Source of the DNA: Desulfosoma sp.
GTDB lineage: Bacteria; Desulfobacterota; Syntrophobacteria; Syntrophobacterales; DSM-9756
Direction of reading: 5' to 3'
DNA length: 64,000 bases
Assembly (NCBI GenBank): GCA_037481835.1
Contig: JBBFKW010000007.1
Location: forward strand, 1 to 64,000
The notes under the pieces were generated by a model. It was not told where the DNA came from and searched no databases. It saw only the letters and a list, made by a program, of their open reading frames with translations. Shown here in pieces: positions 1,109 through 52,001 of the stretch; positions within the stretch are counted from its first letter, which is position 1; every line of letters begins with the position of its first letter. The position numbers and the translations under genes were made by a program.

Positions 1109-1273
1109 GCGTGCGGATCCTCCTGTGCTCCATACCGTGGGGCAGCACATCCGATGGTTCCAGCCGGATCGTATGGATGCCTTTTTCGGCCCTCGGCGTC
1201 AAGCGGAGAACTCCGGGACTCCCGGGATGTTCTCTCTCGCCTTTTCCCGGCGTCTGGCGTTTTTTGAACATTG

Positions 1274-26862: not shown

Positions 26863-27099
26863 AAGTGCGGAGGCATCGAGCGGGAGAACCGCTCGGCGTC
26901 AGCGCGCCGGACTTCTGTGCGCTTGTAACCGGACGCCTTCCGCCGTCAGGCTCCGCCCCGCCCCGGCCTTCAAACAGCGGAACTCGTAAGCCCGCGGCGC
27001 AGCCGTGGGTTCCGGGGCGATAGCGAACCAAACCAAACCCCGAAGGGCTGAAAAGCCCTGAGGCGAAACGCATAATGCTGCAACGTGAAGGACCCTCCA

Positions 27100-34400: not shown

Positions 34401-34952
34401 GTCCCGTGGACGTGCCTCCTTGAAGAGGAAGAAAGAAAGGCCGAAGCGCTTCCCGCCGTGGCCTACGAGGCGGAAGAAGCCGAGCGCATCGAAAGAGCGA
34501 TTCGGAACCTTGTGGATCTTTCGAGCAGGCGGCCGCTGTTCCTCAACCCCGAAGACTACGATCGTCTCCTCCTGGAAGCCCTGGCTCACGAGGCGGATTC
34601 CCAGTGGGCCCGGATCGTGACGGCCTCGGGGGAACCCTCGGCTTCCCAGCAGGAAGGATACCTGTGGACCTATCGGGATGTGATCGATCGATGCCTGCAC
34701 CGCGAAGTTCTGGGGAAATTTTACGCTCCGGAAATTGAAGAGCTTTTCGACGGGCAGGGCCGGGATGGGCTTAGAAAACTTTTCGAAAGCCTCGAACCGT
34801 CCCTGGCCTTGGAAGAAAAGAAAAGGATCGTGGAAGAGCATTTGCGGCGCCGCATGTCCACTGAATGGACCAAGTCCCATGATTTTTATCTGGAAGTTTT
34901 CCGAACTTGGGTGTGGCCCGAAATCAGCGGACAGGGCGCAATGGGCACATAG
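28464..34952 (+). CDS. Giant single-chain 2-oxoacid:ferredoxin oxidoreductase (PFOR/OFOR family), domain order ferredoxin-beta-gamma-alpha, with unknown extra domains
   Basis: AAGGAGG RBS. Ferredoxin CTQCLHCVGLC and CTHCGLCRMRCP (~29052-29185). Beta HSACPSC, TGC, GGDGG, DTQVYSNTGG, TPCP (~30070-30740). Gamma SLAGDRG, FGSSKRG (~31780-31890). Alpha FPITP, SE, TASQG, RALAAP..HTD, DRS, GGLGGR (~32720-33800). Confidence 0.88.
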   Translation: MGETLFPWMPHFPLSFQVPDRRLPLGGAAWPVRISGDGIGAWMETSRGRYRIVSEEWLAAGMRLGLLGARFAQDGFDQEAVPPEAASLWREHLTDGRFYALIVHPPQEPEAAFAAAVFLQDPGGDYTLMETPLQGADLFPYLLAFAQVVGLRVQDPARFDDYGDFMVLGGHNIVERHSTDKRVRYLSRKVRVDDAQCTQCLHCVGLCHEMRTAVTPAGVELLGPAEDHCTHCGLCRMRCPYLLSVPHTEAAGRDGSRRALLELGAGVKLYSKHAADWAEWLEFLEDSPPRGWPYTVHPVFSRDEADGGMPSPGTRQKILTPQRPEGFPGALPEKGLVVTLFSHADALQCLIRPRVVAGLLCSTEHGRVERDIFEAALAAGLEIRGAGLFETSIVDEEAGGGLAAQSVRVRVPANDFTRFLKKLGLWDGRSIARLWRENTVDLILAPRQDDVPVSVQREVLREIGREALILAPHVPQKQPVTKSPLLNDVVRRLQDIFHRHPELLQAESETARRLLDGLPRSAAQLHARYGPMAFAGGHSACPSCAEAQVLAVPVAMATAMSLARGEVPQVAFTCETGCMSETLNKMTETAQKVPGGRTVFGGGFAFGEAMTQVFDRAVRMGLLRKGRRYVVSQGGDGGAVIGLPAWLNALRQQAFLIRQRWANALHFITITDTQVYSNTGGESSATSLLGMGTLTTPIGKFLMGNQKIQWALINLAAEFPGVLVGMGHSADRASIQEFWLLADRLGQSAIRWDVTPCPETGKFFGQDPDDYARIMAHAGMLPQVVFYGRYRKRVAPYHPQDRGKPFDEWRKDPKPLLYWVSRDQRYKAMLVKDPTTGEWVPRNAAARFLIMQLETYRDQMNWQIDLETRLILQAEKRVQEFLGALRTRWESSRHSGAAFPYAVLFDEQGHLKPHFAYSLEREMVLRLLGQEAGVRYADLRDAFQDEEEKRWQAVLRALETLEAFEAGLEPFGDDEERLIRLRTEAREALDQVQKAYGRLRDAVTALWASDPVGKELLGTGDDSNAGADEASAGPLFGILDRILEERTLAAWTELQQYRLSQRLRRDFLQTGGLIRVHHVQAEFREREALRQSVSRLGPFSIAVASLAGDRGIAINRVFAQFLTAKGCWAGMAWQFGSSKRGTPVLSATFVDSRPLERKDAMFSFSTLVVAVTNFEEMKRDPDLLFGSLRVGGTVIVNHWEDPERLWRDVVRFCPENIRPVVTVVRDRAYKDGGWTPERLERELDEALESLGVRPGSRESDRIRTLCRALISCRMVTVDMDGIMERVSGRPGMVSNLVAVSPILDALSAAGLPFDWAQDKDALVQGFPDAVLKNPKLLGLYREAMERARRERREWPSPVAGNGAGKSDFGEASAGATPAFPAGQSRGCAEDPGDALMIMGGTLAGMVLSQIALPEHPLFYVGFPITPAGNPFYAMAEAFANGHPYIVVDELNPSEKVAAEKLLGVARTGLFLPVTFTASQGWRLFTEIIPQFVGARLEGLFLLTKRALAAPNLNIEESHTDFMTFRDDGGIMLAPKSIQEYVPCLYLARLLTHFAKLPVVLSIGGITDTHKIGLTRVPPDIVVRRWLTETLQGFDFLEGRIVNPSGHRVVHGPSCTAATYQETQSEVEKAHAMVCRVWPYAVEAVRRLTGVALNPLEVRVAGTAMEEAVPESASSVETLLMLQGSLFPNAVEALQELEEEGWRAMGCVSVRLMNPFPEEEIQHWIGGLRALAVLDRSNSFGSVPPLASRIFNACARRRKDGSRAGPIVLRTLVGGLGGREITVPEMKALILSTHLLFSPWEPWEGEALGRWVEEDGALRDWIEELAALEMRALERHTRVPKPVKAQGPDGDLFFKERIRRQIVQRDYVGLLAHYNQVEFVAPREVYGETALRQQLVIELEKRLARLAAESGRRDWRRALVLLHYGTSEEDRERARILLSGLTEAPFAGRLLRRYGLDGDERGGPVAAQARPMDLSSGAPAVPWTCLLEEEERKAEALPAVAYEAEEAERIERAIRNLVDLSSRRPLFLNPEDYDRLLLEALAHEADSQWARIVTASGEPSASQQEGYLWTYRDVIDRCLHREVLGKFYAPEIEELFDGQGRDGLRKLFESLEPSLALEEKKRIVEEHLRRRMSTEWTKSHDFYLEVFRTWVWPEISGQGAMGT

Positions 34953-34966
34953 GACGGGGGGCGACC

Positions 34967-37900
34967 ATGGGCATGGAAGGACTCAGCTCGCAGTATTCCC
35001 TGGAACAATTCTATGCGGAGCTTTCCACAGACCAGGAACGAGCCTTTCACAAGACGGCGCGAGACGTCACCGCGGCTTTGGCCGAACGCTTCCGGTTCCG
35101 GGATGCCGTTCGGGACGTGCACAACGCTGTGGAACAAGCTCTCGTCGCCCTGCGAAAAATCGACATGGCTTGGGACAGCGCCCCCGAAGGGGCGTGCCTG
35201 CGGGTTTTTCGCAGGAAATGGTTCGAGGCGGCGCCTCTTGTGGAACATGTCCGACGTGTGGGTTTTTTTTCAACACACCCCGTGGATCTTCTCCCCTGGG
35301 TCCGATGGTTCCTCCTTGTGGAAAACTACCATCGGACGGACCCTGTCCACCACGACCGCCGGTTGGACCGCCTGCGCTTCCTCAAGACCGAAAATCCCCA
35401 CGCCCCGTGCATCAGCCACGAAGATGTGCTTCTGTGGCTCGAACACCAGCTTCTTGTCCACGAACGCGAGCCCTTGTCCGCGATCGCTGAAAAATGCGCC
35501 GAGCAGCTCCGAAACCGGTTGGATGAAACCCTCAGGCCCCACACGGCCCTCGATGCTTTCTTTTTCGTCCTGTTGCGATGCCACCAGTTTTGTCTGGCTG
35601 AAACCATGACCGAAGACGATGCGAGGCGTCTTCAAACCGTCCTGGGATGGCGCCGGTTCCTCTCTCTGACGGATCTCATGCTCGTGGTCATCCATCGGGT
35701 CCTCGATCGGGAACCTTTGCCGGACGCCGTGACGGTTCTCGATGAGCTGATGGCGGATGGGTTCCAGATTCGCCATGCGAGCTTCAAAGACCCGTACGAA
35801 GCGGATGTGGTGGCCGCGGAAGATACGGCCCGCTTCGATGAGACGACGATCCGGCTGTTCGCATCGGTGGATAAGCTTCACGGCATTTTGGAAAGAGATT
35901 GCGCGGCGGTCTTCCAAGAATGGCAGGCTCGGCGGGGAAAGGTTTTGGACGAGCTTGAGGAGGAGATTTGCGAGCTGAGGGAGATGATCGCCAACCCGCT
36001 GCCTCGAAAACACCTCATCGGCCGAACCATTCGATTGCTAACGTCCTGGTGCTTGGCTCACGGGAAGCCGGGTGACGAGGCCTGGGAAAACATGTCGTCC
36101 GAAGAAGGCCTTAGAGCGCTCGTCGATCGGGTTCGGGCGTCTTTTCCCGAAGGGGTTCTCAAGGCTTTGGTGCGCCAGCGGCGCGGGTATGAATTGACCA
36201 CTCGAAAAGAGCTGGCCCTTCGGATCGAAAGGGAATGCCGCCTGCAGTGGGAAAGTTTTCGAAAAGAGCCGGGTTCTCGAGCCTACGGGGAGGTTGATTT
36301 CCGGATTGCTGAGCGCGTTCGGGCCTTGGCTTCGGGGCCGGTCCCACCGGAAAAGGGTGATGCGGACGCACTCAAGGTCGAAACCCTTGCCGGCTTGGCC
36401 GACCTAATCCGGCGGCGCAAGATTTCCGATGAGGCGGTTTCGTCGTCGTTATGCTTGGGATTGGACGTGTTTTTCCCCACCATGGGAACGCCTTTGGAAT
36501 TTGTGGAAAGCCTAAGAGACTTGGTACCTTACGAAGAATTGTGCAACCGCGCTCCGTCGGCGCAAAAGGGCGGACCGGAGGAGGCTGTGGCCTTGTACGA
36601 GAGAACCCTGGCCCGTTTTGCCGGGGCGTTCTACCGATTCGTTGTTGCCCAGGGCAAGAAGGAGGCCGGCCTGCCGCTTGAGCTTTCTTTAAGCGAAATT
36701 CCTGAACTGGCGGCGGTGATGGTCCCTCCGTGGGGTGCCCTGACCGAGGGGTTGCTGCGCAGTGCCGTCCGTAAATTTCAGCATCAATCGGCGCCTCTTT
36801 ACCGCCGCCGGAAGAATCCCATCTGCTTGGATGAAGAAGAATTCGGCGTGCACCTGGCTCATTTCGTCATGTGCGAGCTCAAGGCCGATGTGAAGCACTC
36901 CGCCGAAACGGGGACCCTGGCTGCGGTGCGAAAAGCCGTGACGGAGGAAGCTCTTCGGGTCGTCGTTCCGGACCGCGTCCGAACCCTCACGAGCCCGGAA
37001 AGATTCCTACTTCAATGGGCGGGGATCTTGGACTCCCGGCAGGGCGCCGAAGAGCTGCAGAGAGCCGTGGCGGGGGCTCTTCCCGGCTTGGACTGCGGTG
37101 CGTGTGGGGAAAGCCGATGCGCCTCCTTTGCCCAGGGACTCCTCCAAGGGCGGCGTCGCATCCGCGAGTGCGTACATCTCAGCCCCGCGGGGCAGCGGCA
37201 CATCGAGGCCATGGTGCAGGAACATCTCTCCAAAGTCTCGCGAGGAAACGGTGTCGGATCGGCCTACGAACTTTTCCGGAATCCGGCCCTGTGGAGGCGT
37301 CTGCCGAAAGCGGACCCATTGAGGCGTTCGGTAGTCAAGGTGGTAGATGTGGGCCGACAAGAGGAGCGGCGTCGGGTCATGGATCACGCTTTCCGGAGCT
37401 GGCAGGGGCTCGATTCCAAGCCGGACGTTTACAAGAGGCCGGACCCGGAGGCTTTTTATCAAGCTCTTGTGGAAACCATCGGGTATGAGGCCACCGAAAG
37501 GATTCGCCCCGAGGAACGCCGGTGGTTGGCCGAGCACGGCCGAATCCGCCTGGAGAAGGAACTGGAAAAGCTGGAGAAGCGCACGGATTGGCTCACGCTG
37601 GAGCGGCTCCTCATTTCCGGCGGGCCTTCGAGCCTTGAGGCGGATCCCGAAACCCAAGCCCTGCGCGCCTATGAGGCGATGGCCTACCTGCATCAGCTGC
37701 ACGAGGACGACCGACGGCGCCTTTTGGTCCATCGCCTGGAAAGCTTCGAAGAGGGGTTTTCCCAGTGGTGGAATCAAGATCTCCTCACCATGAACCACCC
37801 CCGCTACCGGATCGATAACTGGGAAGAATTTTCCAAGGTCATCAAGAACGCCTTTTGGCATCAGGAAAATTTCCCGCCGCCCCGGCGTGTGGCGGAAGAG

Positions 37901-39832
37901 CTCTTGGAGCACATGGAGCAGAGCGGCGAAAAGGAAGTCTTTTTCCGGGATGTGCTGTCTTCATGGGTCCAGGACTTTCGGGGGGCGGGGGATCTTTTCC
38001 CGCAAGGGCGGAGGGACGAGGCGGGAACCGACCGCCGGGAAATCGAAAACTTGTCCGATCTGCGCCGGATTTTGGCTCGGTTGTGCCGGGATACGAGGCC
38101 TGCCGCCGAAAAGGCGGACTTTTCCGCATCGGTGCCGGGTTCAACCCGCCGTCGCATCGACGCCGTTTGGAAGGCCTTTCAAAAGTCGCCCGTGACTTTC
38201 GCGGCGACCTTTTCCCTGTCCGACGGGGATTTCACCGACCTGGAAAAACAGCATGTGAGGGATCGCCTCGGGGGGCAGCTCCCGGCGGATCTTTCCCTGG
38301 TGCCGTCCATGGCCGGAGGCCTTGAAGCTCTCGTGCTGGGATTGATCGGCGCCCTGCTGGAACAACAGGATCATCAAAGGCGGTTGGCTGCCCTGACGGA
38401 AGAAGCCGTGCGCTGCGAACAGGCCGAAAAGCTTCCGCAGGAAGCTGTGCGGGCGTGGATTTTCGAGGCCCTGGAGGCAGGCCATGAACCTCGGCAGATT
38501 CTGGAAAAAGTGCTGGGGTGGTTTCACCAGTTTCCCCTGTGGAAAGACCGGATCCTCGTGGATGCGCTCCAGAAGATGGTGAGCCTGACCCGCTGGCGAA
38601 ACCTCCTGGAAACTTTCCCGGGGGTGGTTCTGGAAGGGATTCCTGCGGAAGTCAGGGAAAGCTACGCGCGAACGTTTTCTCGATGGATGGAAAGGGTCGC
38701 AGAGGCCGTAGGGCGATTAGGGGATTTTGATCGAGAACGGCTGCTTTACTACCTATTTGTTCTGGCCAAGAGGGAAGGCGATTTGGACGTCATCACGGCC
38801 CTTTTGCGGGAAATCCGGGAGACGTCGGATGTCATCGAGGCGGCGTGGCTGCAGTTCACCAACGATCGGCTGACGGAAGTTCTGCCCGCCCCTCCGACCA
38901 AGGGCCTGGAAGCTCGCTACAGCCTGCTGATCAACCGCCTCAAGGACCTGGAACCCGTGTGTCGAGGTCTGATGCAAGGCCTGTCTCGAAGCGAAAAACC
39001 TGATGTGGCGGCGGCGGTGCGCGAACTGCAGCTCTACATGCGATTTCACATGGTTCGCGATGAGGCCGAAGCCATGGATGCGGACGCCTGTTTCGAAACT
39101 TTTTGGGAGGAAGGCTACAACCTGGAAGGGTTGGACAAGGAAACGCTCCGTCAGGCTTTCCTGGCGGAATGGAAAAACCGGGAACGATGGCGAAAAGACC
39201 GGGTGTGGCTCATGACCATGGCCGTCGCCCGAAGGCTTGCATCCCAGAGCCATGAGCTCTACGAGGCGGACAAGGCTTTTGCCAAAATGCGCCAGGGCCT
39301 TCTCAAGGAGGATGGACCTGAAGAAGGCCGGGATGTGTGCCGGCGCCGGGGAATCGCCCTGGGCACGGTCAAGGAAGCCATGTACCGCGAGTTGTCCGAA
39401 CTCTTGGAAAGGGAACGGATGGATTCCTTCAGGACGCGTATTCGCCAGATCGTGCATCAGTTGGACCGCAAAAGATTGCGGATCGTGCAGGCCTGGTTTT
39501 CGGGATCCATCGACCGCTACAGCGTTTTCCACGTGCTCAGGCAGTATCAGAAGCGGGCTGAGCCGCCGAGCGACGACGATTTTCGAGAGTTTTTCATGGA
39601 ACAGTGGTTTCGGCGTGTGGACCGGCTGCGGGAATCGGATCGCGCGGACCGCGACGATCGGATTCGAGAAGTGGATGAAGGATTTCACGCCCTCTTGGGG
39701 GTGTCTCCTCTGGCGCTGGAAAAAGAAGCGGCAAAGGAGGCAGCCGAGGCCTGGAAGTCCTGGATCCGAGAGACCGAAGAAGAGATCCGTCGTAGGCTGA
39801 TTGCGGACGAGGTGCCTACGGCGCCCTTATGA
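34967..39832 (+). CDS. Very large protein (~1620 aa) with one central Fe-S domain (RnfB/AcsC N-terminal type); otherwise unassigned
   Basis: LPGLDCGACGESRC...ECVHL at ~37080-37175. Starts 14 bp after the OFOR stop. The rest is charged and helical-looking, with no other motif recognised. Confidence 0.8.
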   Translation: MGMEGLSSQYSLEQFYAELSTDQERAFHKTARDVTAALAERFRFRDAVRDVHNAVEQALVALRKIDMAWDSAPEGACLRVFRRKWFEAAPLVEHVRRVGFFSTHPVDLLPWVRWFLLVENYHRTDPVHHDRRLDRLRFLKTENPHAPCISHEDVLLWLEHQLLVHEREPLSAIAEKCAEQLRNRLDETLRPHTALDAFFFVLLRCHQFCLAETMTEDDARRLQTVLGWRRFLSLTDLMLVVIHRVLDREPLPDAVTVLDELMADGFQIRHASFKDPYEADVVAAEDTARFDETTIRLFASVDKLHGILERDCAAVFQEWQARRGKVLDELEEEICELREMIANPLPRKHLIGRTIRLLTSWCLAHGKPGDEAWENMSSEEGLRALVDRVRASFPEGVLKALVRQRRGYELTTRKELALRIERECRLQWESFRKEPGSRAYGEVDFRIAERVRALASGPVPPEKGDADALKVETLAGLADLIRRRKISDEAVSSSLCLGLDVFFPTMGTPLEFVESLRDLVPYEELCNRAPSAQKGGPEEAVALYERTLARFAGAFYRFVVAQGKKEAGLPLELSLSEIPELAAVMVPPWGALTEGLLRSAVRKFQHQSAPLYRRRKNPICLDEEEFGVHLAHFVMCELKADVKHSAETGTLAAVRKAVTEEALRVVVPDRVRTLTSPERFLLQWAGILDSRQGAEELQRAVAGALPGLDCGACGESRCASFAQGLLQGRRRIRECVHLSPAGQRHIEAMVQEHLSKVSRGNGVGSAYELFRNPALWRRLPKADPLRRSVVKVVDVGRQEERRRVMDHAFRSWQGLDSKPDVYKRPDPEAFYQALVETIGYEATERIRPEERRWLAEHGRIRLEKELEKLEKRTDWLTLERLLISGGPSSLEADPETQALRAYEAMAYLHQLHEDDRRRLLVHRLESFEEGFSQWWNQDLLTMNHPRYRIDNWEEFSKVIKNAFWHQENFPPPRRVAEELLEHMEQSGEKEVFFRDVLSSWVQDFRGAGDLFPQGRRDEAGTDRREIENLSDLRRILARLCRDTRPAAEKADFSASVPGSTRRRIDAVWKAFQKSPVTFAATFSLSDGDFTDLEKQHVRDRLGGQLPADLSLVPSMAGGLEALVLGLIGALLEQQDHQRRLAALTEEAVRCEQAEKLPQEAVRAWIFEALEAGHEPRQILEKVLGWFHQFPLWKDRILVDALQKMVSLTRWRNLLETFPGVVLEGIPAEVRESYARTFSRWMERVAEAVGRLGDFDRERLLYYLFVLAKREGDLDVITALLREIRETSDVIEAAWLQFTNDRLTEVLPAPPTKGLEARYSLLINRLKDLEPVCRGLMQGLSRSEKPDVAAAVRELQLYMRFHMVRDEAEAMDADACFETFWEEGYNLEGLDKETLRQAFLAEWKNRERWRKDRVWLMTMAVARRLASQSHELYEADKAFAKMRQGLLKEDGPEEGRDVCRRRGIALGTVKEAMYRELSELLERERMDSFRTRIRQIVHQLDRKRLRIVQAWFSGSIDRYSVFHVLRQYQKRAEPPSDDDFREFFMEQWFRRVDRLRESDRADRDDRIREVDEGFHALLGVSPLALEKEAAKEAAEAWKSWIRETEEEIRRRLIADEVPTAPL

Positions 39833-39941
39833 AAAAGGCCGCACCCTTATTTTCCGCCCTTTTCGACCTCGGCGGGTCGTCACGGCGTGATGAACGCCGC
39901 GGCCGGCCACGGAAAAGAAGAATATTCAAGGAGTCGTCGCC

Positions 39942-42900
39942 ATGAGCGCCTATCAACCTTTGGACCCGAACATGACATGTCGTCCCTCGTGGTGGGTGGA
40001 ACGTCTTCGGTGCGTTTCGGGCCGCCCAGTTCCAGTTCGGGACACGCGCATCCCGAAAGACGGGAAACCTCTGGCGGCGGTCGTCGGTGCCCTTCGGGCA
40101 GGATTGGACGAGCTGCGGTTGCTTGTAGGGGCGGATTCGGAGGCTTTCCGGGGTTTTGTCGAAGGGCTGCGCGCCGAGGCCTTGGGACCGTGGGGAGAGG
40201 ATCCTGAGCGCCGTTTGGTCGGGCTGGTTAAAGAGGCTTTGGGGCGAAGGGATTGGCGCGAAAAAGACATCATCGACATGATTCTCGCCTATCTCACGGC
40301 GCTGGGTCCTTCGCTGCCCGAAGATGTGAGAATGTCTTGGGAAAGGTTGGAAAGGGCGGCGAAGGCGCGCAACGGTGCCGAGCGCACGCTCATGGAAGGC
40401 CTCATCAGCGAAGCGCGGGGGCGTCTTGGCGGCTTGGCGTGGGCCCGGGAGCATGCCTTGGAAAAAGGACCCCGTGAGGGCGCCTTCGGCCTTTCTTCCC
40501 TTCGATGGCTTCGAGAAACACTGGCCGCCATGACGGGATGCGCCGGCGATCTCGCCGACCGTTCCGATGAGGAGTTGGCGCGCCTGAGTCCGGCCGAGAT
40601 ATGGCAGGATTTGGACGAGGCTTTGACGAAAGCCTGGGGGAAAACGGGCCGGAGCTTTCCCGTCAAAGATTTGGAAAAAGCTTCCTTGTATCTCATGGAG
40701 GACATGGGAGCGAGGAGTCCCAACCATCGGTTCTTCATCCGTTTTCTCATTGAAGACGAAGCGGCCTATCGGCGCCTCTTGAGAACCTGTTACGCCGACG
40801 AAACGGTGCAGAGGGCCTGTTTGGATCAGGAATGCGAGCGGTTCAACCGTCTTCCGGAACATGCGGCCCACCGGGTGTTCTACGACGCCGACGAAAAAAC
40901 GTGGTGGCTTAAAGCGTTTTTCCTCAGGCCGGACGTGGTGCACTGTTTCGTGGAACGGGAAAGAGCCAAGGATATTTACCATGTCCTCGCGGGACTGGAA
41001 CCTAAAGCCTATCTGCCTCGGGTGCTCCATGAAGTTCAAGGGCTTTTCGGGTATGTGACACCGGAGGCGTGCCGCCACATCGTCCAGCGCCTCGGCTTGG
41101 ATCCCGAAGACGTTCTTCGGGTGATCGCCTCCTACAAGCAGTACAGCGCCGATCCCTCGGGGGACATCATCATCTACGTGTGCAAGGGAACAGCGTGTTT
41201 TCTCCGCGGCCAGCCTGAACTGTCGCGTCGGCTCACTGAGGAAATCGGGGCGGAAGTGGACGCCGTGGGCCGCTACGGGGTGCAGTATGTGGAGATGGAT
41301 TGTTTCGGGGTGTGCCATCTGGCTCCCGTGGTGCGCGCCGGAAATCGTTTCTATGGAAAGCAAAAGGCGGAAGATATTCCCCGGCTGGTGAATAGCCTCA
41401 TCCAGGGCCCCGACTACGAAAACCGGCAACGGTTCGTGTCGCGCCTTTTGGAAAAGATGCGTGCCGACAGCGTCAGCGAGCCCGTGGATGCTTTGAGGGT
41501 CGAATCCGTGGGAAAATTTTCCAAAGTCGACCGCTTGGGAGTGCGGGAAGAGGGCGCGTGGGACGATTCTTTGGAGGGATGTTCGGTAATTTTGGACGAC
41601 AAGGGCGCTGTTTCCATACTCCTACCGGACGGTTTCGCGCACGGCGTAGGCCGACTGGTCCCTCGGGTTCTTCCTTTCATCATGCGGGATGCGGACGGTT
41701 TCAATCGTTTCGGCGCCGTCGTTCTCGATGATCATCGTCGGGCGGCACGGGTGTTGGGCGTGCCCGACCTGACGGACGAGGAGGTGATCCGGGGCGCGCT
41801 TCGTCCGACGGCTCGAGTCGTGGACGGCCGCGTGGTGCTCTCTTCCCATGAAAAGACCGTGGTGCTGGGCCCTTATACGGATCGGGTGCTCATCGCCGAC
41901 GCCCCTGATGCCTACGTCGCCGTTGTTTTGGCGGAAGGAGGTGCTTCAGGTCCTTTCGTCGAAACCGAAGCAAGAGGCCCTGACAGGGTTGCGTCCGAAG
42001 AGGCCTCTTTCCGGGCGGGCCAAGACCGGGTTGTTTTGGATTTCGCCGCTGCAGGGCGTCCGTCCTGCATGGCGTCCTATCGAGCGGCGGGGGGCTATGA
42101 GTCGGTCTACCGGGTGCTGGGATTTCGCGGGGAGCCCCCGTGGGATCCGGAACGGATCATCGCGGAAGTGCGGGACGCGAAGCTTCGGGGACGGGGCGGG
42201 GCGGGCTTTCCCACGGGACGCAAGTGGGAAGCCATGTTACGGGCCGTGTGTCGGATCGATCCCGAAGACGGCAACCAAGACCCGGTGAAACTCATCGTGG
42301 CCAACGGCGACGAAGGAGACCCGGGGGCCTTCATGGACCGCACGCTCATCGAGGAAAAACCCCATCAGGTTCTGGAAGGAATGATCTTGGCCGCCGTTGC
42401 CGTGGGCGCCCGCTACGGGGTGATCTATGTGCGAAAAGAGTATGAAGACGCCGTGAGAAGCCTGGAGGACGCGCTTTTCGAGGCACGGCGCTGCGGGTTT
42501 CTCGGGCGGGATATTTTTGGAGTGTCCGGATTGCACTTTGACGTGGAAATCCGATTGGGGGCCGGGGCGTTCGTGGCCGGAGAGAAGCGGGCCATCATGC
42601 GGGCCATTGAAGGAAAGCCTGCAGAACCCACCATCAAGGCCCCGTCCAACACCGTGCGCGGGCTTTGGGGAAAGCCCACACTGCTCAACAACGTGGAAAC
42701 CTTTGCCAATGTCCCCGTCATTCTTCACCGAGGGAGCGCCTGGTATGCCCGGCTGGGCACGTCCCGAAGCGGCGGGACCAAAATCTTTTCCGTCGCCGGC
42801 ATTGTCAAGAAAACCGGGCTCGTGGAAGTCCGCTTCGGCAAGACCCTTGGGGATGTCATCGAAATCTGCGGCGGAATCCAGGACGGAAAGAAACTCTCCG

Positions 42901-43607
42901 GAGTCCAGATCGGGGGGCCGTCCGGAGCCATCCTGTCCTTGACCGGCGCTCGGGCTTACCTGCTCCAGACGCCTTTGGATTTCGACACGTTCAACGATGC
43001 CGGCGCCATGTTGGGTTCCGGCGGGTTGGTCTTTATCGGAGAAGACGACGACGTCGTCCGGCTGGCTCGCCATTTTACGGATTGGCTTTCGGAAGAATCC
43101 TGCGGTCAATGCCCGTCGTGTTTTCGAGGCACCCGGGCCTTGGGGCGTGTCCTGGACAAGATCCTGGCCGGTCAGGGCACAGCGGGCGATATTCACGAAT
43201 TGTGGGCTTTGAGCGATGTGGTGCGGGCCGGAAGTCAGTGCGGCCTAGGAACAACCGCCGCCAACCCCGTGACCAGCGCCTTGCGGTTTTTCCCCGCGTC
43301 CTTTTTCCACTACCTGCTCGGCAACCCGGAGATGCAACCTCGCGATGTCTTTGAGGCCCTGGAGGCCCTGAGGCTCCTGACACGACAGGAAATCGTTCGT
43401 GTTGCGGGAGTGCGCCGACACGTGGAAGGGGCGGCTTTCACGCTGAAACGGCATCTGGTGCGGTTCCTGGTGGAAGAAATCGAAAAAATCGATCGCTACC
43501 GGCCGTTGCCTTCCCGAATGACCGATCGGTTGCTCCGGTTGCTGGGCCTGCCGCGCTACGAAGTGGGCCAAAGAGAAGTCGTCATGGAATGGCGCGATGT
43601 GGCATAA
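39942..43607 (+). CDS. Fused NuoE-NuoF (HydC/HydB-like) NAD(P)H-flavin/Fe-S module with N-terminal extension
   Basis: AAGGAG RBS. NuoE [2Fe-2S] CKGTAC...CFGVC. NuoF LRGRGGAGFPTG.KW, NGDEGDPGAFMDR, NNVETF, GGPSG, and [4Fe-4S] CGQCPSC...CGLG. Confidence 0.9.
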   Translation: MSAYQPLDPNMTCRPSWWVERLRCVSGRPVPVRDTRIPKDGKPLAAVVGALRAGLDELRLLVGADSEAFRGFVEGLRAEALGPWGEDPERRLVGLVKEALGRRDWREKDIIDMILAYLTALGPSLPEDVRMSWERLERAAKARNGAERTLMEGLISEARGRLGGLAWAREHALEKGPREGAFGLSSLRWLRETLAAMTGCAGDLADRSDEELARLSPAEIWQDLDEALTKAWGKTGRSFPVKDLEKASLYLMEDMGARSPNHRFFIRFLIEDEAAYRRLLRTCYADETVQRACLDQECERFNRLPEHAAHRVFYDADEKTWWLKAFFLRPDVVHCFVERERAKDIYHVLAGLEPKAYLPRVLHEVQGLFGYVTPEACRHIVQRLGLDPEDVLRVIASYKQYSADPSGDIIIYVCKGTACFLRGQPELSRRLTEEIGAEVDAVGRYGVQYVEMDCFGVCHLAPVVRAGNRFYGKQKAEDIPRLVNSLIQGPDYENRQRFVSRLLEKMRADSVSEPVDALRVESVGKFSKVDRLGVREEGAWDDSLEGCSVILDDKGAVSILLPDGFAHGVGRLVPRVLPFIMRDADGFNRFGAVVLDDHRRAARVLGVPDLTDEEVIRGALRPTARVVDGRVVLSSHEKTVVLGPYTDRVLIADAPDAYVAVVLAEGGASGPFVETEARGPDRVASEEASFRAGQDRVVLDFAAAGRPSCMASYRAAGGYESVYRVLGFRGEPPWDPERIIAEVRDAKLRGRGGAGFPTGRKWEAMLRAVCRIDPEDGNQDPVKLIVANGDEGDPGAFMDRTLIEEKPHQVLEGMILAAVAVGARYGVIYVRKEYEDAVRSLEDALFEARRCGFLGRDIFGVSGLHFDVEIRLGAGAFVAGEKRAIMRAIEGKPAEPTIKAPSNTVRGLWGKPTLLNNVETFANVPVILHRGSAWYARLGTSRSGGTKIFSVAGIVKKTGLVEVRFGKTLGDVIEICGGIQDGKKLSGVQIGGPSGAILSLTGARAYLLQTPLDFDTFNDAGAMLGSGGLVFIGEDDDVVRLARHFTDWLSEESCGQCPSCFRGTRALGRVLDKILAGQGTAGDIHELWALSDVVRAGSQCGLGTTAANPVTSALRFFPASFFHYLLGNPEMQPRDVFEALEALRLLTRQEIVRVAGVRRHVEGAAFTLKRHLVRFLVEEIEKIDRYRPLPSRMTDRLLRLLGLPRYEVGQREVVMEWRDVA

Positions 43608-43665
43608 AGGCAAAAGTGAAGAGGGAAATCCAGCTGTCAGGAAAACGTTGCCCTGGAGGGGGACC

Positions 43666-44235
43666 ATGATGACCAAAGAGAGAACGTACTTCCAAGCCTT
43701 TCGAGAAATGGTGCAGGTGGTGAGCGGCACCTTGGATGTGCAGGTGGTGCTGCAGGCCATGGTGAGCACGATTCCCCAGGTCTTGGGGGCCAAGGCCTGT
43801 GCCGTCCGCCTCCTGGACCCCAAAGGCCGCACTCTGGAATTGGCCGCCAGTCACGGACTCAGTGACGCCTACATCCACAAGGGGCCTGTCGATGCGGACC
43901 AAAGCCTTGCCGAAACGCTTCAAGGAAAGACCGTCGTCATCCACGATGCATCGACGGACCCTCGAGCCCAGTACGGCGAAGCGGCCCGCAAGGAGGGGAT
44001 CGTGGGCATCTGTTCCGTTCCCCTTAAGGTCAAAGGGAGGGTGATCGGGGTCCTGAGAATTTACACCGAGGAGCCCAAGGAGTATGTCCCCGACGAGCTG
44101 GCCTTTGTGGAGGCTTTGGGAGAATTGGGAGGCATTGCCATTGAAAACGCCCGTATGTACGAGCGGCTGAAAAAGGATTACGAAGAGGTCATGAGCGATG
44201 TCTTTCGCTTTGTGGGGTATCGGCGCAGCCTGTGA
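43666..44235 (+). CDS. Stand-alone GAF domain protein
   Basis: LELAASHGLS..Y, SVPLKVKGRVIGVL, AIENARMY, with GGAGG RBS. Confidence 0.87.
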   Translation: MMTKERTYFQAFREMVQVVSGTLDVQVVLQAMVSTIPQVLGAKACAVRLLDPKGRTLELAASHGLSDAYIHKGPVDADQSLAETLQGKTVVIHDASTDPRAQYGEAARKEGIVGICSVPLKVKGRVIGVLRIYTEEPKEYVPDELAFVEALGELGGIAIENARMYERLKKDYEEVMSDVFRFVGYRRSL

Positions 44236-44342: not shown

Positions 44343-44420
44343 TTTTTTTAGATGGCGGCGAACGCCCGCTCAAGGGGAGAGCGTGCGGGCTTGAATCCGG
44401 TCAGAGTGAGGGCGGCGGAA

Positions 44421-45476
44421 ATGGCGGTCGGGGCGGTTGCAGCGGTTGCGGAGAAGGACTACGGCGCTCTGGATTTTCGAAAAGCGAAGAAACAGTCCCT
44501 GGACGGGCCGGTCAAAATCGAAGATCTGGGCTACGTGCCTTTTCCGGTGAAATTTTTGGTTCCGGATTTCATGATCCCGTGCGATCTCTTTGTTCCCGTG
44601 CTGGCCAAAGGGGAAGAGCTTCCCACCTTCGTCAAGGTCTTGGACCGAGGGCAGTTTTTTTCCGAGGAGTGGAGGTTCGCGCTCAAGGAACAGCGTGTGG
44701 ACATGCTCTATGCGGAAGAAGACGCCGCGATGGGCCTCGACGACTATTTCGCCGAAGTCCTCCATGCCTTCACCGAAGACGAGGTGACCCCCACGTGGCA
44801 AAAGGCCCTGGTTTTGTACAATTACGGGGAATTTCTCGCCCGGCGCCTCTTTCAGGATGTGCATGACGGGGATCTCTTCGAAAAAACGATCCATTGGGCA
44901 GACTCCGTCGTTGGGCTCGTCCAGGGGCAGCAGGCGAAGGTTTCCGTGATCTATCGGCTGTTTTCCCGAGATTACGAAACTTTCAACCACAGTGTCCAGG
45001 TGGCGATGCTGGCCGCGGCTTTTTGCGGCTTTTGCGGCTGGCGCTCCGAGGACGCGACTCGTGTCGGTGTCGCCGGGCTTTACCACGATATCGGAAAAAT
45101 CTGGGTAGACCAGAGGATCCTTCTCAAGCCCTCATCCCTCACCCGTGAAGAATTCGGCCAGATCCGTCGGCATCCGCAGGCCGCTTACGACCATTTGGCG
45201 GCCTTAGACTGGATGAACGCCGATCAGTTATCCGCCGTTCGCGAACATCACGAATCCATGGACGGCACGGGCTATCCTCAGGGGCTCAAAGGAGCGGACA
45301 TCCATCCATACGCTCGGGTTTTGCACATCTGTGATTGTTTTGACGCCTTGACCACCCACCGGCCCTACAAAAAAGCCGTCACCCCTTACAAGGCCTTGAA
45401 GCTCATGCAAAGTGAGATGAGGCTTTCTTTCGATCGACACCTCCTGTATAAATTCATTCAATTTCTCGGTTCTTGA
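44421..45476 (+). CDS. HD-GYP domain protein (putative c-di-GMP phosphodiesterase)
   Basis: [31 protein letters not shown]. Start uncertain (44352 or 44421). Confidence 0.88.
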
Positions 45477-45534
45477 GCCGTACCGGCCGAGAAAGCCGAA
45501 AAATTCGAAACTGGAGACAGTATTGAGGTGCGCG

Positions 45535-47136
45535 ATGCCTGAAAGACAGGTCTATCTTTACGACACCACTTTGCGTGACGGGACGCAGGCCGAGGACTTC
45601 AACCTTTCCTTGGCCGATAAGATCCGGGTGGCTCTGAAATTGGATGATCTTGGGATTCATTACATCGAAGGGGGATGGCCGGGATCCAATCCCAAGGACG
45701 AGGAATTTTTTGCGGAGATCCGAAATTACGAACTGAAACGGGCCAAGATCGCCGCCTTCGGATCCACGCATCACCCGAGTAATCGGGCCGATCAGGACGC
45801 CAATCTGCGCGCCTTGGTGGACGCCAAGACTCCCGTGGTTACCATTTTCGGCAAGAGTTGGACGGTGCACGTCAAGGATGCCTTGAAAACCACGTTGAAC
45901 AAGAACCTGGAAATCATCCGAGACAGCTTGGCTTTCCTCCGGCCGCAGGTGGAGACGCTCTTCTATGATGCCGAACACTTTTTCGACGGTTTCCGGGACA
46001 ATCCTGAATACGCTCTGGCCACCTTGGCCAAAGCCGTGGAAGGCGGGGCGGAATGCCTCATTTTGTGTGACACCAACGGCGGGAATCTGCCGTCGACCAT
46101 TCAGGAAGCCATCAAAGCCGTGCAGGCCCGTTTTCCCAACGTTCCCTTAGGGATTCACGCCCATAACGATTCGGACTTGGCTGTGGCCAATTCACTGGCG
46201 GCGGTGGAAATGGGCGTCGTCCAGGTTCAAGGGACCTTCAACGGTGTGGGGGAGCGCTGCGGTAACGCAAACCTGTGTTCCATCATCCCCACGCTGTGCC
46301 TGAAGATGAACATCCCGTGTTTGGCTCCGGAAGATCTGAAAAAACTCAGGCGAGTCAGCCGATTCATCCTGGAAATTGCCAATGTGCCGCCCAACCGTTA
46401 CCAACCTTACGTGGGCCGAAGCGCCTTCGCCCACAAAGGCGGGGTCCATATCAGCGCCGTGGAACGCAGCCCCCGCACCTACGAACACATTGATCCGGAA
46501 CTGGTGGGCAACAAGCGCCGATTTCTCATCTCCGACCTGTCTGGCAGGGCGGCTGTTCAGAGAAAAGCCGTGGAATTCGGCATCCCCCTTACTTCCAAGG
46601 ACCCTGTGGCCTTGCAGGTGCTCAATCAAATCAAGGAACTGGAACATCAAGGCTATCAGTTTGAAGCCGCCGAGGCCAGCTTTGAACTGCTCATCAACAA
46701 GGCCATGGGCCGGTTCAAGAAATACTTCGAACTCATCGGATACCGCGTGGTGGACCAAAAGCTCAGCGAAAACGGGGAGCCGGTGTCGGAAGCCACCATC
46801 CGCGTCCGCGTCGGGGGGCAGGAAGAGCATACGGCGGCCCTGGGGCAGGGGCCGGTGAACGCCCTGGACAACGCGCTGCGCAAGGCTCTGGAAAAGTTCT
46901 ATCCCGAACTCAAAGGCATGGAGCTCACGGACTACAGGGTTCGCGTTCTTCCCGGCAAGGAAGGGACGGCGGCCAAGGTGCGCGTGCTCATCGAATCCCA
47001 CGACGGCAAGGAACACTGGGGGACCGTGGGCGTTTCCCACGACATCTTGGAAGCCAGCTGGCAGGCCCTCGTGGACAGCATCAACTACAAAATGTACATG
47101 GGGGAAAAGGCCCAAGAAACCAAGACGGCCAAATAA
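45535..47136 (+). CDS. cimA: Citramalate synthase
   Basis: [39 protein letters not shown], and a LeuA-type regulatory C-terminus. Confidence 0.92.
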
Positions 47137-47478: not shown

Positions 47479-48852
47479 CTAGTTGTTGAGGCTTTGGACG
47501 GGTGCGGGGATGCGGCCGCCGAGCCGAATGAATTCCGTGGAGAGATCCCCATTGGGTATGGGAATGATGGTCGCCTCTCCCAGTAGGCCCCCGAAGTAGG
47601 CTTTTTCTCCCGCTTTTTTTCCGGGGACTGGGATGAGCCGGGCTGCGGTGGTTTTTCGGTTGATAACACCGATGGCCATTTCGTCAGCGATGATGGCGGC
47701 GAGGGTTTCGGCGGACGTATCGCCCGGCAGAGCCACCATATCGAGCCCGACGGAGCAGACGCTGGTCATGGCTTCGAGCTTTTCCAGGCTGAGATGCCCC
47801 TTTCGGGCCGCCTCGGAAATGTTCAGATCTTCGCTCACGGGGATGAACGCGCCGCTCAAGCCGCCCACATAGCTGCTGGCAAAGGCGCCGCCTTTCTTGA
47901 CTGCATCGTTGAGCAAGGCCAAGACCGCCGTCGATCCCGGGGCGCCGATGCTTCCCAGGCCCAGGCTCTGGAAGATTTCCCCCACACTATCCCCCACGTT
48001 GGGTGTGGGCGCCAGGCTGAGGTCCACGACACCGAAGGGGATTTCGAGGCGGCGGGCCACTTCCCGGCCGATGAGTTCCCCGACGCTCGTGACTTTGAAG
48101 GCCGTCCGTTTGATGACTTCGGCCAGCCGGCCCAAATCCAGCGCGGGATTGGTCCGTCGCGCCCGATCGATGGCTTTTCGCACCACTCCGGGACCGCTCA
48201 CCCCCACGTTGATGACGCATTCCGGTTCGCCGACACCCAGGTAGGCTCCCGCCATAAACGGAATATCTTGGGGAATGTTTGCAAAGACGCACAGCTTGGC
48301 GCACCCGATGCCGTCCGCGTGGGCGGTAGCCGAGGCGGTGCGTTTGATGACATGGCCCATCATGAGAACGGCATCCATGTTAATGCCCGCCTTGGTGGCG
48401 GCCACGTTGACCGAAGCACAGACCCGCTCGGTTTGAGCAAGGGCTTCCGGAATGGCGTCGATGAGGCTCACATCTCCGTTGGTGAACCCTTTTTCCACCA
48501 AGGCGCTGAAGCCGCCGATGAAGTCCACGTGAACCTCTTGGGCGGCCTCGTCCAGCGTTCGGGCGACCTTGATGAGATCGTCCCGAGCGAAAGCGGCGCC
48601 CACCACGGCGATGGGGCTGACGGCAACGCGTTTGTTCACCACCGGGATGCCGTACTTGTCTCCCACGTCATCGCACACGGCAACGAGATTTTGGGCAAGG
48701 CGGACGATTTTTCGTCGCACCTTGTCGCAGAACCTGTCCACGTCCGGGTCGGCGCAGTCGAAAAGACTCACGCCTAGGGTGACCGTGCGGACATCCAGAT
48801 GTTCGCTGCGAAGCATTTCCAGAGTGGAGAGAATTTCCCGATCCGAGAGCAT
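47479..48852 (-). CDS. PFL-like DUF711/UPF0210 family protein
   Basis: LDVRTVTLG, GVSGPGVV, DLSLAPTP, VCSVGLDM. Confidence 0.9.
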   Translation of the reverse strand: MLSDREILSTLEMLRSEHLDVRTVTLGVSLFDCADPDVDRFCDKVRRKIVRLAQNLVAVCDDVGDKYGIPVVNKRVAVSPIAVVGAAFARDDLIKVARTLDEAAQEVHVDFIGGFSALVEKGFTNGDVSLIDAIPEALAQTERVCASVNVAATKAGINMDAVLMMGHVIKRTASATAHADGIGCAKLCVFANIPQDIPFMAGAYLGVGEPECVINVGVSGPGVVRKAIDRARRTNPALDLGRLAEVIKRTAFKVTSVGELIGREVARRLEIPFGVVDLSLAPTPNVGDSVGEIFQSLGLGSIGAPGSTAVLALLNDAVKKGGAFASSYVGGLSGAFIPVSEDLNISEAARKGHLSLEKLEAMTSVCSVGLDMVALPGDTSAETLAAIIADEMAIGVINRKTTAARLIPVPGKKAGEKAYFGGLLGEATIIPIPNGDLSTEFIRLGGRIPAPVQSLNN

Positions 48853-49456: not shown

Positions 49457-49938
49457 GGCCGAAACCTCCGTGTGCAGGGACAAACTCATCGAGAGGCCCG
49501 CACGCTAGCGTGAGCACGAAAAGAAGTCAATGATCCGAAAAGGAAGCTTCAAGGTTTGCTCGACGGGACTGAAAAGACATGCCGGTATCAGCATGCCACC
49601 GATGATCCTTGTGGCGCCGGCGCCCTATCGATACGAGATTCAATCGAGCGGCCCCTTTCGTCATGGCCGTTAAAAACCCTCGGCACCGCGTTCCGCTGGA
49701 AAGGGCGGCCTCCAAGCCCGATCGGGCGTCCCGGCGGGTTTCCAATGAGGCGCTCGGCGTGCTTTTGTGGAAACCCGATAGGGTCTTGGTCGCACGGGAG
49801 CTCCGACACGAAAATGTCGCTCGACTTTGAGCGCCCCTCTTGTTAAAAGTTTCAGTAAGCGTGTCCCTGAAGAGCAGGTTTTATGCGTCCGTATGTTTCC
49901 GACGTGACGTGACCGTCACGTTCTCGAGGAGCGTTCCC

Positions 49939-51500: not shown

Positions 51501-52001
51501 CTAGGTGGGGTTGATTTCGGCCGCCGCCTCAAGGCGGCCGAAATGGGCGAACCGGCGGCGAAGGTCGCCTGTGTGAGGAACAAAACGCAGCCGACGCGTC
51601 GTCGGGCCGAGGATTTCCAAGAAAATATCCAGCCTTGCCGAAGGGAGGAAGGGCCCGAGCCGTTCGGGCCATTCCACCACGGCGACGCCGTCCCCGAAAA
51701 GAGCTTCCCTCCAGGGGAGGGTTTCCAACTCGTCGGGATCGCCCAGGCGGTAGCCGTCCATGTGGTAGAGGCGAAGCCGCCCTTCGTATTCGTTGATGAT
51801 GGTGAAGGTCGGGCTCGTGACGGCCGTTCCCGCGGGGACTCCCAAGCCTCGAGCGATCCCTTTGGTAAGGAGGGTCTTGCCCGCTCCCAGTTCTCCCCAC
51901 AAGGCCACCACATCGCCCGCGACCAAGCGTTTTCCCACGGCTTCCCCCAAGGCCAAGGACGCCTCGGGTGACGCGGATTCCACGCACAGGCTTTCCGTCA
52001 T
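51501..52001 (-). CDS. tsaE: tRNA threonylcarbamoyladenosine biosynthesis ATPase
   Basis: GELGAGKT, VTSPTF, YHMDGYRL, VEW. Confidence 0.93.
   Translation of the reverse strand: MTESLCVESASPEASLALGEAVGKRLVAGDVVALWGELGAGKTLLTKGIARGLGVPAGTAVTSPTFTIINEYEGRLRLYHMDGYRLGDPDELETLPWREALFGDGVAVVEWPERLGPFLPSARLDIFLEILGPTTRRLRFVPHTGDLRRRFAHFGRLEAAAEINPT

Follow-up and report, generated by a model that had tools for sequence, protein, structure and literature searches.

The window analysed here is a 64,000-nucleotide stretch of DNA from Desulfosoma sp. (contig JBBFKW010000007.1, positions 1 to 64,000), and the subject of this study is a gene within it that fuses NuoE-like and NuoF-like parts. The gene lies on the + strand at 39942-43607, stop codon counted, and encodes a protein of 1221 amino acids (aa; P0001), referred to below as the NuoEF protein. 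Its open reading frame (ORF) starts with ATG, direct reading of the sequence places a Shine-Dalgarno-like AAGGAG at 39928-39933 (+), 8 nt 5' of that codon, and we judge it to be a real gene. Two long genes precede it on the same strand: a single-chain 2-oxoacid:ferredoxin oxidoreductase (OFOR) of 2162 aa (28464-34952), with a ferredoxin domain, a thiamine pyrophosphate (TPP)/beta part and alpha parts, and a protein of ~1620-1641 aa (34907-39832), here called the scaffold, whose sole family match is a PF04060 iron-sulfur (Fe-S) domain at residues 725-756 (CGACGESRC...C). The comparison developed below leans towards the NuoEF protein being the non-bifurcating diaphorase module of a complex of these three proteins, through which electrons from the OFOR would reach NAD(P)+.

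Domain and cofactor content of the NuoEF protein

All parts of the NuoEF gene are given on the + strand. Pfam places a NuoE/HydC-like thioredoxin-fold [2Fe-2S] domain at residues 357-485 (41010-41396; 2Fe-2S_thioredx, PF01257, 1e-24), followed later in the chain by a NuoF/HydB-like core at residues 706-1121 (42057-43304). Within this core lie the flavin mononucleotide (FMN) domain at 743-925 (Complex1_51K, PF01512, 7e-40), an SLBB domain at 949-990 and the helical [4Fe-4S] domain at 1041-1121 (NADH_4Fe-4S, 2e-22). The NuoF and NuoE models of NCBIfam also match, each below its equivalog cut-off (TIGR01959 gives 369 bits versus a 559-bit cut-off), and Pfam and NCBIfam scans of the protein found no family beyond its NuoE and NuoF parts. 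The motifs GDPGAFMDR (residues 792-800, 42315-42341), NNVETF (916-921, 42687-42704), GGPSG (991-995, 42912-42926, in the SLBB region), CGQCPSC (1054-1060, 43101-43121) and CGLG (1100-1103, 43239-43250), on which a prior sequence-only reading of this DNA had drawn, each occur once, and since they fall inside strong domain matches they are not chance.

Conservation was counted in an alignment of 33 members of the NuoEF family, with identity down to 44%. Exactly eight cysteine columns are invariant in all 33 members, namely C414, C419, C454, C458, C1054, C1057, C1060 and C1100, and the next-best cysteine column reaches 23/33. The first four lie on the NuoE/HydC-like domain and correspond to the C1/N1a [2Fe-2S] ligands, while the last four (43101-43250) form the CxxCxxC...C set of the B1/N3 [4Fe-4S] cluster, its fourth cysteine carried by CGLG. 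The glycine-rich loop of the FMN/NAD(P) domain, GRGGAGFPTG, is likewise invariant in the family. Because only eight cysteines are invariant, FMN and two clusters are indicated and a third site is not, so the NuoEF protein is predicted to bind FMN, a [4Fe-4S] cluster at B1/N3 and a [2Fe-2S] cluster at C1/N1a, without further metal sites. This is the cofactor set of the non-bifurcating type.

Accessory sites of bifurcating enzymes are absent

To define the sites that accompany the core in electron-bifurcating (Bfu) enzymes, the core was aligned with two paralogues from the same genome, E. coli NuoF and two fused BfuCB-type proteins. Columns were then scored across a wider sample. The 159 sequences gathered comprise nine family members, 145 representatives (P0126-P0270, including the family member P0161), the two paralogues, E. 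coli NuoF and the two fused BfuCB types. Eleven incomplete cores (P0127, P0159, P0170, P0174, P0200, P0207, P0209, P0222, P0230, P0259 and P0260) were dropped, leaving 148 cores, of which 10 are family rows and 138 are non-family rows, 49 with a ferredoxin tail and 89 without.

Inspection of the Zn/B2 site, which in Bfu enzymes binds Zn or [2Fe-2S], reveals that D1037, in EDDDVVRLAR (43041-43070), occupies the position of the cysteine that precedes B1 in ferredoxin-tail homologues, and that H..C..C is missing as well, both in 10/10 family rows. From the H-x-C-x-C stretch after the core both cysteines are gone; H1123 remains, one residue out of register. In the non-family rows the cysteine before B1 is present in 47/49 with a tail and 38/89 without, and H..C..C after the core in 48/49 and 29/89, respectively. 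No CxxCxxCxxxC, the B3/B4 signature, follows the core in any of the 10 family rows. The 121 residues after C1100 contain no cysteine and Pfam finds no Fer4-type family in the protein, in agreement with the sequence-only reading, which had noted that the C-terminal 2x[4Fe-4S] domain is missing. For B5, no PF01257 match directly precedes the NuoF core, and the place of the HydB N-terminal thioredoxin-like [2Fe-2S]/Zn domain is taken by a cysteine-poor all-beta segment (C547 in 3/33 members, C709 in 2/33). Finally, none of the three operon proteins or 16 neighbouring ORFs is a BfuA (NuoG/HydA-like) subunit of the kind that feeds B1, a count that covers this operon only.

These absences matter for how such proteins are classified. 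In Schut et al. 2022 (PMC9304861), B5 is counted in the conserved Bfu core, and non-bifurcating homologues are described as lacking B2-B5. A second study (PMC11829005) treats homologues with FMN, B1 and C1 alone as non-bifurcating and reports that deletion of B3/B4 abolished bifurcation in T. kivui HydABC; the same source proposes the [B1-FMN-C1] flavobicluster as the actual, or minimal, site of bifurcation.

Residue states around the flavin are of the bifurcating type

The flavin pocket itself carries a different signal. Losey et al. 2020 (PMC7311640) associate bifurcating beta subunits with A/E at Tm232, M at Tm234, F replacing the FMN-site Tyr, and GGPSG; their non-bifurcating states are T/S-x-K/S/A, the FMN-site Tyr and no GGPSG. 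In the NuoEF protein A796 and M798 (in GDPGAFMDR), F877 (GAGAF, within GAGAFVAGEKRA at 42558-42593) and GGPSG at 991-995 are all of the bifurcating kind and are invariant in 33/33 members, so that the non-bifurcating states are not found. The sequence-only reading had named A-F-M and GGPSG as features of bifurcating HydB, and that attribution agrees with Losey et al. (PMC7311640). E. coli NuoF and the 654-aa paralogue of the same genome instead show T-Y/F-K, Y and GGAGT/GGASF.

Among non-family rows, A/E-x-M occurs in 40/49 with a ferredoxin tail and 15/89 without, F at GAGA[F/Y] in 43/49 and 17/89, and GGPSG in 42/49 and 20/89. The F after NNVET, also put forward by the sequence-only reading as a bifurcating mark, does not behave in this way: it is found in 17/49 tailed and 16/89 tail-less rows, and the residue varies within the family itself (F in six, L in three and T in one of the 10 rows). 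In this sample, then, the F/Y switch that tracks the ferredoxin tail appears to be the one at GAGA[F/Y], not the residue after NNVET. The 'position 367' of Losey et al. fits neither site in 7p5h_B numbering. All three Losey states come together in 39 non-family rows, 32 with a ferredoxin tail and seven without the canonical tail, so that the states are good markers but, given these seven, not sufficient ones.

Affinity and phylogeny of the core

Searched against the PDB, the core scores 348-384 bits with its nine top chains, which comprise HydB of T. maritima, A. woodii and T. kivui, NfnB, a Stn subunit, NiFe-HydB and the generically named 9mqx_B and 9bov_B; FdsB (293 bits), NuoF (291) and Nqo1 (290) come next. 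The NuoE part scores 68-57 bits with NfnC/HydC and 54 with Nqo2.

FastTree was run on all 148 rows; for IQ-TREE, subsets of 67 and 43 rows were picked by hand with the FastTree result in view. In the FastTree tree the family is one clade (99) on a long stem, lying inside a 104-row clade (99) with all ferredoxin-tail rows and outside the 75-row clade (96) that contains those rows. A careful LG+G4 search on 67 rows recovers the family as monophyletic (100/100), with P0167 as sister (99/93); the latter comes from a gene call of 458 aa that lacks a tail and begins within a NuoE domain. Family and P0167 then form a polytomy with the main Bfu clade (97/98) and with FdsB-like rows, annotated as formate dehydrogenase iron-sulfur subunit, and this polytomy stands apart from complex-I-type NuoF and from the tail-less paralogue of the same genome on branches of 100/94 and 100/95. 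A constraint that keeps the family and 15 Bfu rows in one group survives the approximately unbiased test (p-AU 0.84). A quick LG+G4 tree that placed the family with the FdsB-like rows was discarded as the product of a poor search, the constrained tree being 29.5 log-likelihood units better. Under LG+C20+F+G4 with 43 rows, family and P0167 group with the Bfu rows, and the FdsB-like rows fall outside that grouping (SH-aLRT 89, not starred).

The sequence-only reading had raised a placement among ordinary non-bifurcating diaphorases; the family falls outside the complex-I and own-paralogue groups, while its relation to the FdsB-like rows differs between LG+G4 and C20. With moderate support, these trees describe the family as a long-stemmed clade either next to the Bfu radiation or at its base, and secondary loss of B2-B5 would be the more economical history.

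Conserved synteny and natural fusions tie NuoEF to the OFOR and scaffold

The order OFOR, scaffold, NuoEF is retained in 4/4 genomes with upstream sequence. Among named loci the scaffold lies upstream in 11/12, the twelfth having only 514 nt of upstream sequence, and the OFOR in 7/7 with 10 kb upstream; the four-genome set and the named loci come from one species-genome collection and probably overlap. Fusions extend this pattern. In six protein clusters, 2980-3020 aa long and drawn from several sources, scaffold and NuoEF form one chain, and one 2242-aa protein joins the C-terminal half of the scaffold to NuoEF. The metagenome-derived P0161, at 7473 aa, carries OFOR, scaffold and NuoEF in that order on one predicted polypeptide: by BLASTP, ~1090 unassigned N-terminal residues are followed by the OFOR at 1094-3335, the scaffold Fe-S region at 4336-4650, NuoEF at 5397-6812 and ~660 more residues. 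If its gene call is right, P0161 would be among the largest redox enzymes known.

Since natural fusions imply coupling, the NuoEF protein is probably coupled physically to the OFOR and the scaffold, the two partners that the sequence-only reading had proposed and that synteny and fusions now strongly back. These data bear directly on whether the NuoEF protein acts independently of the OFOR, either as a stand-alone NAD(P)H:acceptor diaphorase or as a decaying relic. Modelling yields no binding evidence, which speaks for independence, but the fusions to the scaffold, alone or together with the OFOR, the conserved synteny, the intact reading frame and cofactor ligands invariant in 33 members make it very improbable.

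Two further clusters, P0073 and P0075 (724-725 aa, on contigs of 229 and 290 kb), contain the N-terminal domain, NuoE and the beta domain but no NuoF, and look like split forms. No partner NuoF gene was found for them; a metagenome scan for P0073 gave 22 pattern matches, none confirmed.

Immediately 3' of the NuoEF gene lies a GAF-domain gene (43597-44235, +; Pfam GAF_2, 3e-19), which is present at that place in 8/9 loci with downstream sequence. Its homologues align only from residue ~22, so translation probably begins at the ATGATG near 43667, not at the ATG sharing nucleotides with the stop codon of NuoEF. The GAF protein may be a regulator or a fourth subunit. Beyond it are an HD-GYP-like gene (HD_5, 44352-45476, +) and a citramalate synthase gene (45523-47136, +; TIGR00977, 784 bits, above the cut-off), and these two neighbours are kept only in Desulfosoma and Desulfacinum loci (4/12). 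Elsewhere in the window are an HMG-CoA-lyase-like gene (27085-27975, +; NF004283, 305 bits), a DUF711 gene (47479-48852, -), a B12-binding radical SAM protein with DUF4070 (49840-51456, +) and a bifunctional NAD(P)H-hydrate repair enzyme with YjeF_N and Carb_kinase (51998-53551, -). Long antisense ORFs oppose the OFOR gene (29973-34880, -, 1635 aa) and the NuoEF gene (39816-41429, -, 537 aa); these are most likely not genes but frames kept open by the scarcity of stops in DNA of 60% G+C.

Family-specific domains surround the core

An AlphaFold2 model of residues 22-1221, based on a 68-row alignment, has a mean predicted local distance difference test score (pLDDT) of 82.6 and a predicted template modelling score (pTM) of 0.83, and it comprises an all-alpha N-terminal domain, the NuoE fold, an all-beta domain at ~519-663, the NuoF core and a folded tail. 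Structural comparison of the full-length model with VIA-align returned solely NuoF, NuoE, thioredoxin-like and generic helical rows, and barely probed the N-terminal domain and the tail.

The N-terminal domain (residues 1-345, 39942-40976) is specific to the NuoEF family and rich in invariant charged residues (D34, R36, R102, D104-E107, D109 and others). It has no Pfam or NCBIfam match, resembles neither scaffold nor OFOR by BLASTP (best E 1.4 and 0.19), gave no usable match in an ESM Atlas search and was found in no shorter protein at E <= 0.001 among 8000 scored candidates. The sequence-only reading had called this part an unknown N-terminus of ~330 aa; it is ~345 aa long. The same reading described a ~200-aa linker between NuoE and NuoF. 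The segment in question (486-705, 41397-42056) does lack a cluster motif but is not loose: most of it is a confidently modelled, Cys-free all-beta domain, followed by a disordered stretch. Folded by itself, the beta domain reaches a pLDDT of 81.8. Its best VIA-align row is 2vld_B (Z 6.0, root-mean-square deviation 3.8, 95 aligned residues), followed by PH/PTB/EVH1-like rows at Z 3-4, and Foldseek against 'pdb' returned nothing at E <= 0.001. The beta domain is thus modelled without a clear solved relative, which is no proof of a new fold.

The C-terminal part had been described as a ~120-aa tail without cysteine motifs. The 121 residues after C1100 are indeed Cys-free, but the tail proper, past the NuoF domain, is ~100 aa (residues 1122-1221, 43305-43604) and is predicted to be folded, as a helix, a beta-hairpin, helices and a strand. 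Relative to HydB, the NuoEF core also contains insertions of 10 aa and 5 aa. The family-specific, cofactor-free domains that stand in place of the Bfu accessory sites most likely serve as docking surfaces.

Distribution of the family

A word-index search gave 5740 matches at E <= 0.001 among 8000 scored candidates. Among the 120 listed, at least 66 are full-length relatives (P0004-P0069; 1039-1327 aa, 45-90% identity, 82-100% query coverage), and their names include Desulfosoma, Desulfacinum, Syntrophobacteraceae, Desulforhabdus and 'Deltaproteobacteria'. In an exhaustive search with clustering at 50%, a clear gap separates the representatives of the family (729-447 bits) from the next protein (380 bits). 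The family is rare. It occurs in 6/401 sampled genomes of the phylum, this one included, and a locus pattern scan of 185,579 species genomes, which may overlook distant members, gave 79 matches and 12 confirmed loci, all in Desulfobacterota.

The genome under study holds three PF01512 genes, by length none of the complex-I type. Apart from the NuoEF gene these are a NuoE-NuoF fusion of 654 aa that has no tail and shows the non-bifurcating residue states (L001, G000:C14:37248-40763) and a canonical 617-aa HydB/BfuB-type protein that begins with a 2Fe-2S domain and ends in a 2x[4Fe-4S] tail (L002, G000:C1:142647-146162). Over half of the sampled words of the NuoEF gene are found in contigs of hot-spring metagenome runs X3-X5 from two studies, and a thermophilic host fits this occurrence.

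Proposed electron path and its alternatives

With B2/Zn, B3, B4 and B5 gone, the criteria of the field, as set out in PMC9304861 and PMC11829005, favour a non-bifurcating diaphorase. In the path that we propose, a 2-oxoacid would be oxidised at the TPP site of the OFOR, electrons would move along its [4Fe-4S] clusters, and the single Fe-S domain of the scaffold would relay them to B1. From B1 they would reach FMN, which would deliver them to NAD(P)+ as hydride. Overall, the complex would act as a direct, exergonic, non-bifurcating 2-oxoacid:NAD(P)+ oxidoreductase; we infer this wiring, its direction, the absence of bifurcation and the nucleotide preference considered below. The 2-oxoacid/acyl-CoA couple lies at about -500 mV and NAD(P)+ at -320 mV, so that the transfer needs no coupling. 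On balance we consider this non-bifurcating assignment somewhat the better bet.

Several observations weigh against it. The three Losey states linked to bifurcation are all present and invariant in the family, and 32 of the 39 non-family rows that share them carry a ferredoxin tail. The core is nearer to HydB/NfnB-type chains, several of them from bifurcating enzymes, than to FdsB, NuoF or Nqo1. The [B1-FMN-C1] flavobicluster proposed as the minimal bifurcation site is wholly kept, and either the OFOR ferredoxin domain or the scaffold cluster could be the acceptor for C1. A low-potential donor does not in itself dispense with coupling, in that Wor-Bfu has such a donor yet is described as obligately coupled to both NAD and ferredoxin (PMC9304861).

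An alternative is that the module still bifurcates or confurcates, with its low-potential branch supplied in trans. The flavobicluster would split electron pairs, and from a mobile C1 on the NuoE domain low-potential electrons would go either to the Fe-S cluster of the scaffold or to the ferredoxin domain of the OFOR, in place of B3/B4. Free ferredoxin at the OFOR would be the third substrate, and 2-oxoacid oxidation would be obligately coupled to reduction of NAD(P)+ and ferredoxin; in the opposite direction, the system would make oxoacids. Invariant A-x-M, GAGAF and GGPSG, the best scores of the core with HydB/NfnB/Stn chains and of the NuoE part with NfnC/HydC, the C20 grouping with Bfu rows and the AU result that keeps family and Bfu core together are all consistent with such a scheme, as are the fusions, which show a tight physical link to two other Fe-S proteins. 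Por-Bfu and Wor-Bfu offer precedents for low-potential donors (PMC9304861), and the flavobicluster proposal offers a site (PMC11829005). Set against this, the low-potential exit sites of known Bfu enzymes (B2/Zn, B3 and B4) are all lost, and B5 with them; deletion of B3/B4 abolishes bifurcation by HydABC (PMC11829005); seven of the 39 other three-state representatives also lack the canonical tail; a third substrate site is not evident; and the operon contains no BfuA/NuoG-like subunit. We therefore regard a trans-supplied branch as unlikely. The sequence-only reading had left the choice between a secondarily non-bifurcating module and one with its low-potential branch supplied in trans; both are kept here, the former favoured, and the loss proves wider than was claimed, as it takes in B2/Zn, B3, B4 and B5.

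A related possibility, which we rate as rather improbable, is a minimal flavobicluster Bfu enzyme, in which [B1-FMN-C1] without B2-B5 would still bifurcate or confurcate, the OFOR ferredoxin domain or the scaffold [4Fe-4S] cluster accepting electrons from a swinging C1. If true, this would be a new architecture, in which a TPP enzyme, not soluble ferredoxin, is the hard-wired partner of a Bfu low-potential branch, and it would offer a direct test of the flavobicluster as the sole site of bifurcation.

The direction of flow admits another reading. The complex might be mainly reductive, an anabolic, NAD(P)H-driven 2-oxoacid synthase (acyl-CoA + CO2 to 2-oxoacid) with NuoEF as the point of electron entry. 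For the Por-Bfu of syntrophs, Schut et al. propose a role of this kind (PMC9304861), the hosts here are anaerobic Desulfobacterota, and the neighbours of close relatives include citramalate synthase, which uses pyruvate and acetyl-CoA. Without bifurcation, however, NAD(P)H (-320 to -380 mV) would hardly suffice to reduce a couple at -500 mV, and nothing seen here looks like an energy-coupling part; citramalate synthase, moreover, adjoins the operon in just 4/12 loci, those of Desulfosoma and Desulfacinum. A mainly reductive complex is accordingly doubtful in our view, and the proposed oxidative, non-bifurcating path is retained.

Nucleotide preference may also be written in the core. The family has AGEKR where the canonical CGEET or CGEST is expected, in 10/10 family rows and 0/138 others, so that K882-R883 stand at the Glu-Thr of GEET and K882 aligns with E183 of E. 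coli NuoF. In that protein the glutamate E183 reportedly disfavours NADPH, a mutagenesis result that literature searches did not turn up. As a hypothesis only, K882-R883 suggests a preference for NADP(H).

The site and minimal needs of bifurcation in HydABC and other Bfu enzymes are still debated, and the family is a natural experiment on both, with a Bfu-type flavin pocket plus B1 and C1 but without accessory sites, probably wired to a low-potential 2-oxoacid oxidoreductase. Should the module not bifurcate, the sequence 'signatures' from which bifurcation is now predicted in genomes would not be enough for that purpose; should it do so, a Bfu enzyme can manage without the accessory clusters, and substitutes for them can act in trans. 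The question is testable because cultured hosts exist: Desulfacinum infernum DSM 9756, D. hydrothermale DSM 13146 and Desulfosoma caldarium.

Comparison with known systems

One close comparison is with the BfuBC modules of HydABC, NfnABC and Stn (for example 7p5h, 7q4v, 8a6t, 9n5u, 8oh5 and 7t2r), which share with the NuoEF protein the NuoF-fold FMN/NAD(P) site, B1 and C1. The likeness extends to A-x-M, GAGAF and GGPSG, the highest PDB scores and the C20 tree grouping. The NuoEF protein differs in lacking the Zn/B2 ligands, B3/B4, B5 and a BfuA/NuoG-like partner, and in having NuoE fused N-terminally of NuoF, itself behind a 345-aa novel domain. Non-bifurcating modules, such as complex I NuoEF/Nqo1-2, FdsBG and Syntrophus aciditrophicus HydB, have the same cofactor set of FMN, [4Fe-4S] and [2Fe-2S], and both S. 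aciditrophicus HydB and the 654-aa paralogue of the same genome are likewise NuoE-NuoF fusions without a ferredoxin tail. In contrast to these, the NuoEF protein has 'bifurcating' residue states, and its partner would be an OFOR reached through a scaffold rather than a NuoG-like subunit.

Other enzymes hard-wire an OFOR to a flavoprotein that reduces pyridine nucleotide, namely the pyruvate:NADP+ oxidoreductase (PNO) of Euglena and Cryptosporidium and the NADH-dependent phenylglyoxylate dehydrogenase (Pad) of Azoarcus. The flavoprotein of PNO is a P450-reductase-like FMN/FAD module and that of Pad a different FAD subunit, so that despite the same proposed overall chemistry their flavoprotein modules are unrelated to NuoEF and they are functional analogues only; the NCBIfam PadG model matches the OFOR weakly. 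If non-bifurcating, the complex proposed here would be a bacterial counterpart of eukaryotic PNO, built from different parts.

Literature searches for this OFOR-scaffold-NuoEF system returned only the predicted Por-Bfu, which Schut et al. 2022 (PMC9304861) report in syntrophic Proteobacteria and Dehalococcoidia. Por-Bfu likewise combines a pyruvate-type 2-oxoacid oxidoreductase with a HydBC-like NAD module. As described there, it has four separate pyruvate oxidoreductase (POR) subunits and a full BfuABC with six core clusters, whereas here the OFOR is one chain of 2162 aa, a scaffold of 1600 aa is present, and the BfuBC-like fusion carries B1 and C1 only, with no BfuA.

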